NCBI GenBank assembly: GCA_963662665.2
Contig: CAXXJS010000023.1
Span: forward strand, 1 to 63,443
Direction: 5' to 3'
DNA: 63,443 nt
Origin: Candidatus Latescibacterota bacterium
GTDB lineage: Bacteria; Latescibacterota; UBA2968; GCA-2709665
Made by a program: the position numbers and the translations under genes. Under the pieces are notes generated by a model. The model saw nothing but the letters and a program-made list of their open reading frames with translations. It did no database searches and was not told the origin of the DNA. Positions 18,960 to 52,966 of the stretch are shown piece after piece (within the stretch, counting starts at the first letter, position 1; every line of letters begins with the position of its first letter).

Positions 18960-19505
18960 TTAATATGGACATGCATCCAATCCTGTCATTTCGACTGCCG
19001 TGAGCGTGTTCCCTGCCGCCTTCGGGCAATCCGCATCTCCATCGGACTCATCCGGTACCGCCGATTCCGGATATTCTCAAGGAAGGGGGTTGCCTTATCT
19101 TCCCGGAACCACGTCTTGAAGGCTTTTGAGATCCGTTACCGCAGCGCCCAGGAACTCAGGCGTCCTGGGGTGCAGGAGGCGGCCGCAGTCCCAGAAAAAC
19201 CTTACCCCGCGGATGTTCTTTACAATTGCAAGCAGCTTTTCCTCTTCGGCCGACAGGGGCGCGACCGGTTTTTCGATGGCGGCATGGTAGGAAAACCGAA
19301 ACACGTCAACATATCCGGGTTCATAGAAATCCGAGCCGGGCCTCGCCACGGTTTCGCCTTCCGCCTGCTCCAGGTCGTGGACCGCCGTTCCCCATCCGGC
19401 CGACTGGAAGTCGTGGACATTTGTGATTCGCAGGGCGCTGCCGTTCTCCACGAGCACGTTATGCAGTCCCGGTTCTCCCCACAGGAGGACGTTACCGCCG
19501 CCTAT

Positions 19506-21137
19506 GAGTCTGCGCCGCAGGAAAATTCATTTCAATGGACATGTAGTTGTAGGTATAATGGGTCGTGTAGTTGGTATATGTCAAGGGTATCGTTGTGTGT
19601 TATGTCAGGGGAGGGAGCGATCCATGCCGACAACGTTTCGACCGTATCACCCGGACCAGATATTGCTGTTGGCGCCGGATCTTCGGGAGTGGGTGCCTGA
19701 AGGTCATCTGTCGCACCAGGTGAGCGATCTGGTGGATTCCCTGGATCTGGGGTCGTTCTACGCGCCCTATGAAGGCGATGGTCGTCGCAATGCGCCATAT
19801 GATCCATCGATGATGTTGAAGGTATTGATCTATGGGTACGCGACGGGAGTGTATTCGTCTCGAGCGATCGCTCGGAAGCTGGAGGAGGACGTGGCGTTTC
19901 GTATGTTGGCGGCGGGCAATTTCCCACAACACCGGACGATCTGCGAGTTTCGGCGTCGTCACCTGGAAGATTTCGGGCGTTTGTTCGTGGAGGTGGTTGG
20001 TGTGGCACGGGAGATGGGCCTGGTACGTTTCGGGACGTTATCTTTAGACGGCACGAAGGTACGAGCGAAGGCCAGCAAGCGCAAGGCCATGAGTTACGAG
20101 CGGATGTTGAAGGAACAGGCTCGTCTGGAGAAAGAGATCGGGGCGTTGCTTTCGGGTGCTGTGTCGATTGATGCCGAGGAGGATGCACGTTACGGCGTGG
20201 ATGTTCGTGGCGACGAGTTGCCGGTCGAGTTGCAGCGCAGGCAGGCTCGTCTGGCGGCGATCAGGGCGGCGAGGGAGCGTCTGGAAGCATCGCAACGAGC
20301 CGTCGACGATGCGCGCGGGCGCAAACCGGGTCAGAAGCGCAACCCGAAGGGCGGGCGGCCTTACAAAAGAGCCTATGGCGAGCCCGACCCGAAGGCTCAG
20401 AGCAACTTCACGGACCCCGAGTCTCGGATCATGAAGACGAGCGCGGAGGGGTTCCAGCAGTGCTACAACGCGCAGACGGTGGTGGACGCCGAGCGTCAGA
20501 TCATCGTGGCTGCACATCTGGGGTCACAGGCCACCGATCAGGGCTTTATGCTCCCCTTGCTGGATGGTGTGCAAGAGACATTCGGGGTCAAGCCGGACGC
20601 GGTTCTGGCGGATGCGGGCTACTGCAACGAGGAGGACCTGGCCACGCTTGAGGAGCGTGGCATTGATGGTTACGTGGCGCTGGGGCGGGAGGGCAAGGAA
20701 AAGGTGGACGTCGATTCGGAGACGCTTCCGGCGACCCATCGCATGGGCGAGAAGCTCACCAGCCCGGAAGGTCGGGGCCTGTATGCGAAGCGCAAGTGGC
20801 TCTCGGAGGCGCCCAACGGATGGATCAAGGAGGTATTGGGCTTCCGGCGCTTCAGCTTCCGGGGGCTGGAAAAGGTGCGTGCCGAGTGGGATCTGGTCTG
20901 CCTCGCGTTGAACGTCAAGCGGATGGCAGCGTTGTCGATGTGTTGAAGCATGTTTTCGGGTGTCCTGTCCTTATGGACTCGACATACGGGAAGCCACGAT
21001 CCCTGGAATCTCGCCCTCAACACGCCTGCCTGCAACGATCACCGTACCCAAAACTCATCATACCACTCCCAACATAACGACCAACCCGACTCACGGACAC
21101 ACCTCGCCCTTTGTAAAAACTCCTGCGGCGCAGACTC
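19506..21137 (+). mobile_element. IS1182-family insertion sequence (1632 bp), 4-bp TSD CTAT
   Basis: Perfect 17-bp TIRs GAGTCTGCGCCGCAGGA / TCCTGCGGCGCAGACTC; CTAT at 19502-19505 and 21138-21141. Confidence 0.95.
19624..20946 (+). CDS. IS1182-family DDE transposase
   Basis: YDPSMMLKVLIYGY, SSRAIARKLEED, LDGTK, TDPESRIM, YNAQ, ADAGY, GFRRFSFRG. Confidence 0.95.
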   Translation: MPTTFRPYHPDQILLLAPDLREWVPEGHLSHQVSDLVDSLDLGSFYAPYEGDGRRNAPYDPSMMLKVLIYGYATGVYSSRAIARKLEEDVAFRMLAAGNFPQHRTICEFRRRHLEDFGRLFVEVVGVAREMGLVRFGTLSLDGTKVRAKASKRKAMSYERMLKEQARLEKEIGALLSGAVSIDAEEDARYGVDVRGDELPVELQRRQARLAAIRAARERLEASQRAVDDARGRKPGQKRNPKGGRPYKRAYGEPDPKAQSNFTDPESRIMKTSAEGFQQCYNAQTVVDAERQIIVAAHLGSQATDQGFMLPLLDGVQETFGVKPDAVLADAGYCNEEDLATLEERGIDGYVALGREGKEKVDVDSETLPATHRMGEKLTSPEGRGLYAKRKWLSEAPNGWIKEVLGFRRFSFRGLEKVRAEWDLVCLALNVKRMAALSMC

Positions 21138-45023: not shown

Positions 45024-45041
45024 TCGCCAGGACCAATCTAA

Positions 45042-45088
45042 CCTTGATTCGAAAGTGCGCCTTTTCACGGCGCACTTTCGAATTGGGG
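45042..45088. mobile_element. 47-bp mini-MITE (family D) with CTAA TSD, containing the 5' hairpin of the group II intron
   Basis: CTAA|CCTTGATTCGAAAGTGCGCCTTTTCACGGCGCACTTTCGAATTGGGG|CTAA; ends match 50872-51818; 20 nt identical to 51787-51806. Confidence 0.75.
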
Positions 45089-45269
45089 CTAACTGCGCGG
45101 GCTCGCAGGTTTTCACTGGCAGTTCATTCTGACTTTTCTGTATCTTCCAAAATCCTCCTACTGGAACGACATTACCTCTCCGCACCCCTTGAAACCCGGA
45201 CAGACGGCACCGTAGCGTCCGTACCCCACCCCGTTTTTTTTATCATCGACTCTCAGATGGAGGTCTGCC

Positions 45270-49299: not shown

Positions 49300-50871
49300 G
49301 TGTCCGGGAGAAACAGAATGGTTCAGGCAATACCACCTGCCGATGTAAAACGCTCGATGTCTCCACTTGCCAGGTATCTCTCCGAATCCGCCGCGGTCGG
49401 CAGTCCCGTGGATCCGGGTTTTGTCTCCTACCTCGCGTCACTGGAACAGATTCACGCGACTTCACCTCTAGTGGCCGCAACCATCGTTGCCGAACTGGAG
49501 GATCAGCGCGGCAACCTGAAGATGATCGCCAGCGAGAACTACTGCTCGCTGGCCGTTCAGCTCGCACAAGGCAATCTCTTCACCGACAAGTATGCGGAAG
49601 GTGTGCCCGAACGCCGCTTCTACGCGGGCTGTGATAACGTCGACACCGTCGAAAAACATGCCGCTTCCCTCGCTCGAGACCTCTTCGGGGCGGACCACGC
49701 GTACGTTCAGCCCCATTCCGGCGCCGATGCCAATCTTGTCGCCTTCTGGGCTATCCTGTCCGCCCGCATTCAGACGCCGTTCGTTGAACGGACGGGACGG
49801 AACGACCTCGCAGCTCTCTCCGACGCCGACTGGCGGGAACTCAGAACCGCGCTGGGCAACCAGAAATTGCTCGGGCTTGATTACTATTCCGGCGGCCATC
49901 TCACCCACGGCTACCGGCAGAACGTCTCCTCCAGAATGTTCCACGTAGAAACCTACGGTGTCCACCCCGAAACCAAGCTTATCGACTACGACCGGGTCCG
50001 CAGCCAGGCGAAGGCGTTCAAACCCCTGATCCTACTGGCCGGATACAGCGCTTACACGCGTAAAATCAATTTTCGCATCTTCAGGGAAATAGCGAATGAA
50101 GTGGGCGCAGTCTTTATGGTAGATATGGCGCACTTTTCCGGTCTGGTGGCAGGCAAGGTCTTCACCGGCGACTACGATCCCGTGACGCACGCCGACGTTG
50201 TGACCACCACGACCCACAAGACCCTCAGGGGGCCGCGAGGCGGCATGATTCTTTGCACGGCGGAATATGCGGAACACGTGGACCGCGGGTGCCCGATGGT
50301 GCTGGGCGGTCCTCTGCCCCACGCCATTGCTGCCAAGGCCGTCGCCTTTGAGGAGGCAGGCGCCGGCGAATTCAGAACCTACACGCGACGTATTGTGCAA
50401 AACGCCGTGGCCCTGGCCGAAGCCTGCGTTAAAGAGGGGCTTAACGTACTCACCGGCGGCACCGACAACCATATGCTGCTCATCGACGTGACGCCGCTTG
50501 GTCTCACCGGCAGGCAGGCGGAATCCGTCCTGAGAAATGCCGGGATCACGCTCAACCGCAACGCATTACCCTTCGATACGAACGGCGCATGGTACACCAG
50601 CGGGCTACGGGTCGGCACACCCGCCCTCACGACGCTCGGCATGGGCGCGGACGAAATGCGGAGAATCGCCGCCATCTTGCGGCTTGTCCTCTACAACACA
50701 CGGCCCGTCCGGATCAGGAAAGGCAGGCACGCCGGAACGCCGAGCAAAGCGCGGTCCAGGACCCGGCCGGAGGCGCTCGCAGAAGCCCGTGCAGAGGTGG
50801 CGAACCTGCTTTGCCGGTATCCTGCGTATCCCGAACTGGACCTGGAGTACCTGAAGCAGGTGCTGCGTTAA
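49300..50871 (+). CDS. glyA: Serine hydroxymethyltransferase, long type (start uncertain; ATG 49318 or 49357 possible)
   Basis: [45 protein letters not shown]. Confidence 0.96.
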
Positions 50872-51818
50872 CCCCAATCCGAAAAAAACAGCAACTCGGA
50901 AACGCGACGAAAACCCCTGAAACGGGGCGCAATGGTCGTCAAAAAGGACGTTTTTTCAGTTCACGTCCAGTGACCTGGTGTATCCTGGTAATCAGCCGTC
51001 AAATCGCCTTTATTCACTTGCCTATATTCGATTTTACGTCCCGGAAAAAGTAGAGTCGAGATGTGGCGCGGTGGTTTAGGAGTGGCCTGTCTGTTCCCGC
51101 CCCTTTCGTCTGGCGGTGCCTCAATAGCCCCTCCCTGCTCCGTTTCCACATCCCGCTCGTCGAACCGGACGTGCGGAGTTACCGCATCCGGCTCTCCGAC
51201 GGACATCGCCTTCAGGTACACACTGCCCGATCTGCCCGGACAGCTTCACCTGAAACCTTAGCTTGATCTGGAGTCGCCTCGTCTTATTCTGGAGGAGGTT
51301 ATAGGCTTGCGCCACTCTCCCGACAGTTGTCCCCTTCACAAGCACATCCGAAGTCAGGCCCCTTTCCTCCGCCGGCGTTACCCGGCATCACAGGTACTAC
51401 GAGCCTGTCCGCCACCCCATACGGCCCGGCCTGGCCCTCACGGGCTTCCGGTTGGTGGCTCTCCACCACCGCTGGGGCTTCCCGTGTTGCGTCGGATCTC
51501 CTTGTATGCGTGCCTCCGCCATTACCCCGGCGGGACCGTTGGGTGCTCTCGTTGCCTGCTTCCCCAGCGACGGCGGCCTTCCCCGTTCGCAAGCCGGGTC
51601 GGCTCCCGCATTACCCTTTTCGAGGCCTGCTCAGCGTTTACTCACGTTTCAGCCCACATACTCGCCGAGTCGCCTGGCGACCCTCTACACCGGAGGCTTC
51701 GGAGATGTCGTTACCTACGTCTCCGCTCCGATTGCTTCCGACTGTGGCAACATCTGTCGGGTGGGACTCTCACCCACTGAAGTTCCGCGCCTTTTCACGG
51801 CGCACTAGCGAATCAAGG
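50872..51818. mobile_element. MITE family D (about 190 bp without insert) with TTAA TSD, carrying a group II intron
   Basis: TTAA|CCCCAATCCG ... CGAATCAAGG|TTAA; same ends as 45042-45088. Confidence 0.65.
51050..51805 (-). ncRNA. ORF-less group II intron (756 nt)
   Basis: 5' GTGCG; domain V GAGCCGGATGCGGTAACTCCGCACGTCCGGTTC (51194-51162) with AGC triad; long domain VI ending CTCGACTCTAC; no RT ORF. Confidence 0.93.
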
Positions 51819-51865
51819 TTAAACGGTCATCCCGGTGCTTGGGGCGCCTGTCAAACCACCCGCGT

Positions 51866-52966
51866 TCATTGCCTGACCGCATCCATCACCGCGTCGTGAA
51901 ACTCCGGCCGCAACCTTCGTATCCCCTGATTCTCGCGGGTGGGATGCACCCGGTTTGTCAGGAGTATTACGCCGACGTCCCGCTCCGGATCGGCCCAGAC
52001 GGAGGTGCCCGTGAAGCCGGTGTGTCCGAACGACCGGACCGAGAAACGCCGGCCTGCGGAACTGCCCGCCTCCGATACTGTATCCCACCCCAGCGCGCGG
52101 GTGCTGCCGGGCGCCAATTCCGCCCGCGACGTAAACCGGCGGATGGCATCTTCGGAAAAAACCCGCCTTCTCTCGTGCATACCTCCGTTCAGCATCACCC
52201 TCAAGAAACGCCCCAGATCCGCCGCCGCCCCGAAGAGTCCCGCGTGCGGCGCCACACCGCCCATTGCCCAGGCATTTCCATCGTGCACCTGACCATGAAT
52301 CAACCCCCTGCGTTGCTCAGCCTGAAACTCCGTTGGCGGAATGCGGTCCAACAACTCGCGCCCGGGCAGAAACATGGTCTGACCCATCTCCAGAGGACCA
52401 AAAATGTACTGCCGGGCAAGGTTTTCGAGCGGTACTCCACCCAACCCTTCGATGGCTGCCCCCAGAAGGAGAAAGCTCAAATCGCTATAAATCGTCGCGG
52501 ACCCCGGTGCGTACGTGAGCGGTGTCCTGCACGCGGCCGCGAGTACCGACGCCTTACCCCGGCAGGTCTCGAAAAATCGCTGGTGCGCGGGCAACCCGGC
52601 ACAGTGCGCCAGTAGATGTCTGATCTTCACGGCGTCCCTGCCATCCCCGCGGAAAGCCGGAACGTATTCACTCACTCGCTCATCCAGGTCCAGCCCGGAT
52701 TCAAGCGCCATACAAATCGACGTTGTCACAACCACCTTCGTAAGCGACGCGAGGTCGTAGAGGTCATCCTCTCTTACCTCCGGCGCATCCGGCTCGTACG
52801 TGTGGCGTCCGGCTGTCCAGCAGGCGACCCCGCCCCCACCCCGCACGAGCAGGCCCACGGCGCCTGGCGTGCTCCGCTTACGGACGTGGCGTTCCAATAC
52901 CTCGCCGGCCCGCTCGAGACGTATGGGATCGATACCGTCCTTTATGTCGGTTCGTTGCGAATTCAT
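51866..52966 (-). CDS. Serine hydrolase, beta-lactamase class C/PBP-like family
   Basis: ASLTK (SxxK), YSD, GHTGFTG, LLTNR. Confidence 0.92.
   Translation of the reverse strand: MNSQRTDIKDGIDPIRLERAGEVLERHVRKRSTPGAVGLLVRGGGGVACWTAGRHTYEPDAPEVREDDLYDLASLTKVVVTTSICMALESGLDLDERVSEYVPAFRGDGRDAVKIRHLLAHCAGLPAHQRFFETCRGKASVLAAACRTPLTYAPGSATIYSDLSFLLLGAAIEGLGGVPLENLARQYIFGPLEMGQTMFLPGRELLDRIPPTEFQAEQRRGLIHGQVHDGNAWAMGGVAPHAGLFGAAADLGRFLRVMLNGGMHERRRVFSEDAIRRFTSRAELAPGSTRALGWDTVSEAGSSAGRRFSVRSFGHTGFTGTSVWADPERDVGVILLTNRVHPTRENQGIRRLRPEFHDAVMDAVRQ

Follow-up and report, generated by a model that had tools for sequence, protein, structure and literature searches.

An ORF-less group II intron that very probably homes into the tip of a multicopy MITE in a Latescibacterota genome

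A group II intron without an open reading frame (ORF) lies inside a miniature inverted-repeat transposable element (MITE) in the window, a 63,443-nucleotide stretch of contig CAXXJS010000023.1 from a Candidatus Latescibacterota bacterium. The intron is 756 nt long, occupies 51805-51050 on the minus strand and encodes no reverse transcriptase (RT). Its host is a short, non-coding, multicopy element of 191 bp with terminal inverted repeats and a 4-bp target-site duplication (YTAA). Taken together, the sequence comparisons suggest that the intron very probably uses the tip of this MITE as its homing site. They also indicate that it spread by retrohoming into MITE copies that had already diverged, and not by transposition of the intron-MITE composite. 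The genome is a metagenome bin of 66 contigs (4.86 Mb, 92% complete, 5.4% contamination). An earlier note on this DNA had read the composite as doubly non-autonomous, an ORF-less intron paired with a MITE, and had proposed that it could spread both by retrohoming and by DDE transposition. The pairing was borne out, and spread of the composite by DDE transposition was not.

A blastn search of the window's own genome with the 955-bp unit returned 87 pieces. Eight were full-length units, three had query positions 467-623 replaced by about 1.4 kb, and about 65 consisted of the 182-bp 3' exon alone. The same 13-nt tip preceded these solo copies. An nhmmer profile of the 191-nt MITE, built from nine clean copies and searched against this genome, gave 77 matches, 66 of them near-full. 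Among the near-full copies, eight held the ORF-less intron, one held a 1975-nt sister intron and 57 were empty, so that intron-free MITEs with these ends, which the earlier note had anticipated, were plentiful. All nine occupied MITEs were entered after base 13 of end A, in agreement with the claim that the intron targets the terminal repeat. Mapping of the copies placed all eight ORF-less introns in the same MITE end, at loci whose flanks were unrelated. The 4-bp duplications around the eight composites were identical in six and differed by one base in two.

The introns and the MITEs that carry them differed strikingly in their divergence. In the 28 pairs that can be formed from the eight composites, the introns were identical at 754-756 of 756 positions (0-2 differences; 99.7-100%), while the 3' parts of the MITEs were identical at only 158-175 of 182 (7-24 differences; 87-96%). 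The variable columns of the alignment started three bases into the 3' exon. The two MITE-borne copies in the complete genome of a congener (G009) showed the same kind of contrast. Transposition of the unit would have brought the MITE part along with the intron, and this was seen in no pair. The intron therefore entered eight pre-existing, diverged MITEs, each time at the same base.

We considered whether the composite might also have been moved as a unit by a DDE transposase, in addition to retrohoming. Each composite is surrounded by a 4-bp duplication and retains the outer 13 bp of the repeat. Moreover, ribozyme-transposon chimeras moved by a transposase do exist in the form of IStrons (PMC4227781; here and below, published systems are described from the accessible portions of the cited papers). 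However, the duplications are explained by the earlier insertion of empty MITEs. No two of the eight composites shared a MITE history, the best pair matching at 175/182 in the MITE against 755-756/756 for the introns of the same pairs, and the contrast in G009 points the same way. In addition, the intron cuts through the inverted repeat, so that 13 bp stay outside and 756 bp separate them from the rest, which may have disabled that end; cut off from the remainder, the outer 13 bp have probably lost transposase binding. The contrast between intron and MITE identity refutes unit transposition as the main route, and a contribution beside retrohoming seems very improbable.

Comparison of empty with occupied MITEs set the edges of the intron to the base. 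In an empty sister copy at C53:8490, which is 97.8% identical to the window's MITE part, ...CGCTA is followed directly by TTTTTCCGGG. At the corresponding glyA/beta-lactamase locus the congener G011 has one TTAA and neither MITE nor intron, and in G006 and G007 only 115 and 57 nt separate the same two flanks, which leaves no room for a 191-bp MITE. The features of the composite are as follows.

51819-51822, no strand: TTAA target-site duplication, the copy upstream on the intron strand; a single TTAA stands at the empty G011 site
51806-51818, minus strand: 5' exon, the outer 13 nt of MITE end A, with intron-binding site 1 (IBS1, the last 7 nt) and positions -13 to -10 of IBS2
51050-51805, minus strand: ORF-less group II intron, 756 nt (RF02003, RF00029, empty against occupied MITEs)
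51642-51779, minus strand: 5' part of domain I (RF02003 match)
51613-51617, minus strand: candidate exon-binding site 2 (EBS2), AGGGU (register scan and shuffles)
51586-51592, minus strand: EBS1, UUGCGAA, terminal loop of a CCCG/CGGG hairpin (covariation, consensus fold)
51201-51355, minus strand: domain IV remnant, at the place where the 1975-nt sister introns have about 1.4 kb that contain the ORF
51162-51194, minus strand: domain V with AGC triad and 2-nt bulge (RF00029, direct reading)
51050-51158, minus strand: domain VI, about 109 nt (fold z = -4.85)
50872-51049, minus strand: rest of the MITE (3' exon), ending in end B (nhmmer, 191-nt MITE model)
50868-50871, no strand: second TTAA copy, in which 50869-50871 is the glyA stop codon

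The earlier note's placement of the insertion, 13 nt inside an element flanked by TTAA with the left copy including the glyA stop codon, thus held, with TTAA found at both ends. Its identification of an ORF-less group II intron within a MITE also stood, on a covariance-model match, on the empty MITEs and on the lack of any Pfam family in the three longest ORFs that overlap the intron (two on its strand, one opposite). The domain I model RF02003 (group-II-D1D4-4) matched the minus strand with 89.7 bits against a gathering score of 49, one of 12 genome-wide matches above that cut-off. The model of domains V and VI (RF00029) aligned end to end over 51196-51050 at 35.7 bits; its gathering score is 40, and the shortfall can be attributed to a long insert of about 85 nt in domain VI. 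The RNA begins with GUGCG at 51805 and ends with ...CUAC at 51050, in keeping with the GUGYG/AY rule. The predicted branch point is a bulged A of domain VI, at 51056 and 7 nt from the 3' splice site. On direct reading, domain V forms a 33-nt helix. Domain VI is unusually long, has a stable fold and is kept in relatives.

EBS1 is located where the earlier note had placed it. The loop UUGCGAA (51592-51586) forms six of seven pairs with the window's exon end, UUCGCUA, and all seven with UUCGCAA, which is the exon end in six of the other seven copies. To the genome's own variants we added 38 relatives from eight other species of the genus. The EBS1 helix was constant among these relatives, and the seven loop bases changed together with the last seven exon bases. 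Examples, given as EBS1/exon end in DNA letters, are CAUGGAU/ATCCATG, UGUCAGC/GCTGACA, UUUCGAA/TTCGAAA, UGAAUUA/TAATTCA and UGACGA/TCGTCA. The hairpin was also present in the consensus fold. Over 35 distinct combinations the pairing score was 201.5 of 245, while shuffling the exons between introns gave a mean of 108.6 (sd 8.6).

A second contact was found in an A-rich loop upstream, whose terminal AGGGU (51617-51613) varies in step with exon positions -14 to -10. In the register scan this pairing peaked sharply at -14, with a score of 109 of 175 where shuffles averaged 83.6 (sd 4.3). For EBS1 as for EBS2, none of 10000 shuffles reached the observed score, a count that overstates independence because the sequences are relatives. 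An EBS2 lying 5' of EBS1 is the canonical order. We also tried CAAGG at about intron position 301 as an EBS2 pairing with exon CCUUG, an alternative that would have made the 51592-51586 loop EBS2 instead of EBS1. It was rejected, being invariant among relatives with other targets. The partner of EBS2 is the last base of the TTAA duplication (position -14) plus repeat bases 1-4, and that of EBS1 is repeat bases 7-13. Together the two sites read the last duplication base and 11 of the 13 tip bases, which accounts for an insertion point exactly 13 nt in.

Public sequencing runs showed the same boundary, since in four of four runs the contigs matching a conserved stretch diverged exactly at the start of the EBS1 loop. 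This 45-nt stretch just upstream of EBS1 (L009:1680-1730) was found at contig depths in the thousands, with many continuations at the loop, and the high-depth runs were labelled sponge, coral, marine and others. Introns of this lineage, with many specificities, thus appear to be abundant in sponge, coral, marine and other communities. None of the RNA runs contained the stretch, and spliced exons would look like an empty MITE except in reads that include unique flanks.

Occupancy followed the match to EBS1. The ORF-less intron was present in 6 of the 17 near-full MITEs whose tip ends in CGCAA, in two of the three ending in CGCTA and in none of the 46 others (Fisher p = 2.2e-5). This bears on whether the intron might have spread at the DNA level, by homologous recombination or gene conversion between MITEs and without reverse transcription. 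MITEs offer 13 + 178 bp of flanking homology, and conversion would give homogeneous introns. The 5' homology is just 13 bp, however, and the composites show no co-conversion tract, the differences jumping from 0-2 in the intron to many only three bases into the 3' exon. Furthermore, a link between occupancy and EBS1 match (8/20 against 0/46) is a signature of RNA-guided targeting, and the relatives switched target together with EBS1. We therefore regard DNA-level spread as very unlikely, and retrohoming as the better account of these copies.

The protein for retrohoming could come from the sister introns. The RT-encoding parent introns expected by the earlier note were found in three copies of 1975 nt, which start at C61:80849, C24:8271 and C16:126157 and share 94-95% identity with the ORF-less form across domains I-III. 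The C61 copy has entered a full MITE, again at the same base; the host of the C24 copy is a very short element resembling the MITE, and the C16 copy lies at a tip-like sequence. Each has an open frame of 463 aa that holds, from the first ATG, an intact 441-aa RT/maturase (P0001). This protein matched TIGR04416 at 354 bits (cutoff 300), RVT_1 and GIIM, with nothing beyond RT and maturase domains and no endonuclease domain. Its nearest solved relatives are IIC reverse transcriptases, 6ar1 (1e-53) and 7uim (2e-50), a proximity that is not a class assignment. A 31-nt stretch of the ORF-less intron (51324-51294) resembles the part of the sister introns that surrounds their start codon, a region that serves as the protein's main binding site in other group II introns. 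Mobilisation of the ORF-less intron in trans by the sister-intron protein is thus plausible from the sequence.

In the mechanism that we propose, the intron RNA, which the covariation shows to recognise the duplication and the tip through EBS2 and EBS1, would reverse-splice after base 13. The reverse-spliced intron would then be copied into DNA, with the RT/maturase supplied in trans by one of the three sister introns. Because the protein has no endonuclease domain, priming from replication-fork strands would be expected; such priming has been described for endonuclease-less introns (PMC4424553) and is probably used here. The MITE itself may be mobilised by the transposase of an IS1380-like element at C57, a candidate described below.

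The composite has deep relatives. MITE or intron matches were found in 14 of 14 other genomes of the genus, 17 of 21 of the family and none of 19 of the sister family. The ORF-less introns of seven species, the window's and six others of the genus, align through the same domain IV remnant, which indicates that the ORF was lost once, before the species split. Their consensus fold has 217 predicted pairs, of which eight show compensatory changes and few are broken. In the six other species the EBS1 of the ORF-less form has been retargeted to other repeated sites. G001 has at least 15 ORF-less copies, none of those listed being in this MITE, whereas in G006 and G009 some copies lie in the same MITE family and have an EBS1 that matches those tips. 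G009 holds several ORF-less copies in all, and G007, assembled as a single contig, has at least seven with the ORF.

Two further observations concern these congener introns. The commonest variant in G001, G007 and G009 (EBS1 CAUGGAU; for example L042-L049, L062-L068 and L085-L088) lies within a repeated word of the type TATCCTGTNNATCCATG, in some places present as a tandem array. Palindromic inserts of about 27-33 nt, of the type GCCTGCCTG...CAGGCAGG, occur at different places inside introns L058 and L053/L054/L056 (G009) and L077 (G011), and look like a further tiny mobile hairpin element.

The ORF-less copies might be inert relics that no longer splice or move. Bacterial ORF-less introns have been called rare and mostly non-mobile (PMC4424553). 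However, eight near-identical copies in diverged MITEs imply recent activity, the ribozyme landmarks are all intact, and the structure has been kept across species. There is also an experimental precedent of mobile ORF-less introns driven in trans (PMC2882425). In view of these points, inertness has only a slim chance of being correct.

A different concern is that assembly created the pattern by threading one intron unitig into several MITE loci. The genome is a metagenome bin, the intron is a 756-nt repeat, and an apparent EBS1 swap among the ORF-containing copies, described in the next paragraph, hints at phasing errors. Against this, the single-contig congener genomes (G007, G009) carry many intron copies at defined sites, and the exon ends of the occupied MITEs follow the EBS1 rule, an outcome that threading at random would not give. 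An artefact of this kind is extremely unlikely.

Several points nevertheless weigh against homing into the MITE tip as the full explanation. The domain V/VI match falls short of its gathering score. Eleven of the 17 MITEs with a perfect 7/7 IBS1 are empty, so homing is inefficient or has further determinants. Collapse of near-identical repeats by the assembler may have inflated the 99.7-100% intron identity to some extent, although the contrast with the 4-13% divergence of the MITEs would survive 1-2% of hidden intron variation. The three ORF-containing copies pair poorly with their own exons, with 3-4 Watson-Crick pairs and 1-2 wobbles out of 7. Their EBS1 loops, about 214 nt into the intron, look exchanged. 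UUUUGGA, the EBS1 in C61 and C24, pairs at all seven positions, three of them wobbles, with the C16 exon, and the EBS1 of C16 (AAUCGAA) pairs 7/7 with the exon of C61 and C24. This may reflect mis-phasing in the assembly or real ectopic insertions; a swap in assembling three near-identical 2-kb repeats would explain it. The contigs of the four public runs are short and end at the variable loop. One 358-nt public contig (X15) spans the exon end to past EBS1, but its three differing letters are only partly located and it was not used for phasing. The similarity between the MITE and the C57 element is confined to about 20 terminal bases, and that transposase is only a candidate. Finally, everything on mechanism is read from sequence.

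The ends of the MITE resemble those of an IS1380-family element in the same genome, the one at C57 described below. The genome also holds an insertion sequence (IS) of the IS1380 family that is present in 16 copies of about 1.7 kb (e.g. C10:121223-122515), encodes a 454-aa transposase (NF033539 at 387 bits, PF13701) and had 4-bp NTAR duplications in all six copies examined. A divergent IS1380-like element at C57:49338-50890 measures 1553 bp between two flanking TTAG words and has an open frame of 495 aa (PF13701, 110 bits). At one tip, 14 of the first 17 bases are those of MITE tip B. Both IS1380-type elements thus show 4-bp NTAR/YTAR duplications and C-rich tips (CCT.../TCT...). In general, members of the IS1380 family make 4-5 bp duplications and have tips starting with CC. 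The tip CCTGAATAATTCA, the target of sister intron variants in G011 and G013, is the tip of the 16-copy element type.

On the cognate transposase whose existence the earlier note had supposed, the evidence is therefore divided. The C57 element is the best candidate for the autonomous partner of the MITE, judged by tip and duplication, but no autonomous element with identical tips was found. A genome search for paired tips 30-6000 bp apart with matching duplications returned only MITEs, two composites and the mini-element described below. Loose tip scans were too noisy and were not used. A solo tip at C61:190192 had no transposase gene adjoining it, and DDE_Tnp_4 (PF13359), tried as a source of the transposase, gave one match, which was unrelated.

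The duplications and ends of the MITE were examined across its copies. The flanking 4 bp are mostly CTAA or TTAA, and as scripted they were the same on both sides in 40 of the 66 near-full copies. The script was off by one base for the window's and the C8 copies, and re-reading the window's TTAA/TTAA brings the count to 41/66. Rare flanking words (TTCA, TAGA, TCAA, GTAA, CGAA, CCAA) were rare on both sides alike; the two-sided match points to a true duplication and not to a fixed recognition word. The 10-bp tips of the two ends agree at 7 of 10 positions. Tandem MITEs with one shared duplication, or nested ones, were seen at C9:10032-10323, C36:43134-43451, C30:42479-42731, C61:175179-175357 and C24:7973-8284, so the same transposase seems often to have chosen the ends or flanks of the MITE itself.

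The 14-bp pairing of the MITE ends through G-U wobbles on the intron strand, which had been pointed out before, is real. Four of the 14 pairs come from the palindromic TTAA and the rest from the inverted repeat. Each of the three mismatches in the repeat is a transition and happens to form a wobble on one strand, for which we roughly estimate a chance of about 1 in 4 given three transitions. The empty MITE folded as RNA was no more stable than shuffles (z = -0.16). With that fold, and with wobbles likely enough by chance, we saw no support for an RNA-level function of this pairing and set the idea aside.

A mini-element elsewhere in the window had been cited in support of composite transposition. 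It has the following position.

45042-45088, no strand: 47-bp mini-element, with flanking CTAA at 45038-45041 and 45089-45092

The element does exist, with its CTAA duplication, but it is a relic in which intron bases adjoin the other tip, and it gives no evidence for composite transposition. Its two 13-nt tips, A and B, enclose a 21-nt hairpin with a perfect 7-bp stem and a loop of 7 nt. The orientation of this loop shows that intron bases 1-19 come after tip B on the minus strand, and the join recurs in a second relic, at C40:161354. A variant of the intron thus once entered the other repeat too (tip ...CGAAA), and most of that intron was later deleted. An intron with the matching EBS1, UUUCGAA, exists in G006. 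At the orthologous site G007 lacks the mini-element and has one copy of the duplication, being 51 nt shorter, and G011 is empty as well. This was the only mini-element of its kind in the genome.

Beyond this genome, related introns hint at a wider pattern. We took the best 80 of 469 confirmed relatives of the protein in species-representative genomes; they are 61-90% identical and come from many phyla. Proteins 61-72% identical to that of the sister introns occurred in metagenome-assembled genomes (MAGs) labelled Planctomycetota, Gemmatimonadota, Acidobacteriota, Proteobacteria and others. For 51 of these 80 loci a motif script could place the 5' boundary with at least 30 nt of exon before it; the loci, which are not independent, yielded 48 distinct exon ends. 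TAA or TAG started at -16 in 23 of the 48 and at -15 in six, and at the other offsets from -30 to -3 it occurred 0-4 times. Several exon ends read as a duplication plus a tip, namely CTAG or CTAA followed by CCCGGA..., CCTGGA... or CCTGCA.... Ten downstream ORFs included two IS1380-type transposases (L106, in an Acidobacteriota MAG, and L092, in the genus) and one IS4/5-type N-terminal domain (L102); four others were ordinary host genes and three had no match.

These exon ends, which lie 13 nt after YTAR and in some cases beside IS1380 or IS5 transposase genes, hint at transposon-tip specialists in several phyla. With somewhat less than even odds, and put forward only tentatively, this intron may belong to a widespread endonuclease-less lineage whose ancestral habit would be homing into the outermost 13 bp of YTAR-duplicating transposon repeats (IS1380 and IS5 types, and their MITEs), with EBS2 across the boundary between duplication and tip and EBS1 re-tuned for each transposon family. 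TAR was shown to be a true duplication in the window's genome only. If the reading is true, such introns would be hyperparasites that split, and perhaps disable, transposon ends.

The neighbouring genes converge on the composite. The gene on the intron strand has the following position.

51866-52966, minus strand: beta-lactamase-family gene (PF00144, 188.8 bits)

Its 3' end lies 44 nt upstream of the MITE on the intron strand, and it is convergent with glyA. It is a possible source of read-through transcripts into the intron. No terminator-like site was found between this gene and the MITE, and a scan of 50700-52000, which covers the stretch upstream of the intron, found none where 1.2 would be expected for the MITE. 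On the plus strand, glyA encodes serine hydroxymethyltransferase (PF00464, 391.6 bits). Its ORF (49300-50871) is long, with 523 aa from the first GTG, and the Pfam match falls into two stretches, which suggests an N-terminal extension or a later true start, plus an insert near the C-terminus. The window also holds an IS1182-family insertion sequence at 19423-20946 on the plus strand (NF033551, 372 bits; about 1.64 kb), with eight further copies in the genome. It has long near-perfect inverted repeats and CTAG-like flanking words, and is unrelated to the MITE.

The arrangement would be a second, independent case of ORF-less intron mobility beside one well-studied cyanobacterial case, here in an uncultivated phylum. 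It offers a clean natural experiment, with dozens of diverged target copies and the ORF-less intron only where the exon end matches EBS1. It also suggests how a retroelement without its own enzyme can still multiply, its target being kept multiplying by another parasite. If the rule of 13 bases after YTAR holds across the clade, the transposon tip is a new homing niche, and one may ask whether a transposon is crippled when an intron of this kind enters it. The naturally retargeted EBS1/EBS2 sets are ready material for studying target recognition by endonuclease-less introns. Our literature search found no report of group II introns in MITEs, IS1380 elements or repeat tips; most subscription journals and supplements were outside its reach.

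Among described systems, the closest are the TeI3 ORF-less introns of Thermosynechococcus elongatus, which experiments have shown to be mobilised by a 'driver' protein that related introns encode (Mohr et al. 2010, PMC2882425). Both cases show a single old deletion of the domain IV ORF, ORF-less copies that outnumber those with the ORF, and diverged EBS families that match their sites. Unlike TeI3, the intron described here has as its homing site a MITE/IS repeat tip, one target sequence in dozens of copies. Its presumed protein partner has no endonuclease domain, its host is an uncultivated member of Latescibacterota, and the system is known from sequence alone. RmInt1 of Sinorhizobium meliloti (ISRm2011-2; PMC1802570) shares the endonuclease-less RT/maturase, the homing site in a multicopy IS and a dispersal that follows the IS copies; however, RmInt1 has its own protein, and the site here is the outermost 13 bp of the repeat, including the duplication base.

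Introns that sit in another mobile element and outside host genes fit the 'hiding in mobile elements' pattern of Waldern et al. (2020, PMC7306698). That survey works at the level of gene neighbourhoods with transposase genes, and its accessible portion does not mention a base-precise tip preference. Class C introns, which insert after terminator hairpins (PMC7306698), are similar in that the nearest solved relatives of the protein are IIC reverse transcriptases and that it has no endonuclease domain. They are marked by a short IBS1, no EBS2 and insertion just after a terminator or attC hairpin. The 7-nt EBS1, the 5-nt EBS2 and the lack of a terminator-like hairpin in the scanned region led us not to file the intron as class C. 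As in the IStrons, which combine a group I intron with IS200/605 (PMC4227781), a ribozyme is physically joined to a DNA transposon. The IStron moves as one unit, whereas here the ribozyme is a group II retroelement and the data argue against transposition as a unit.

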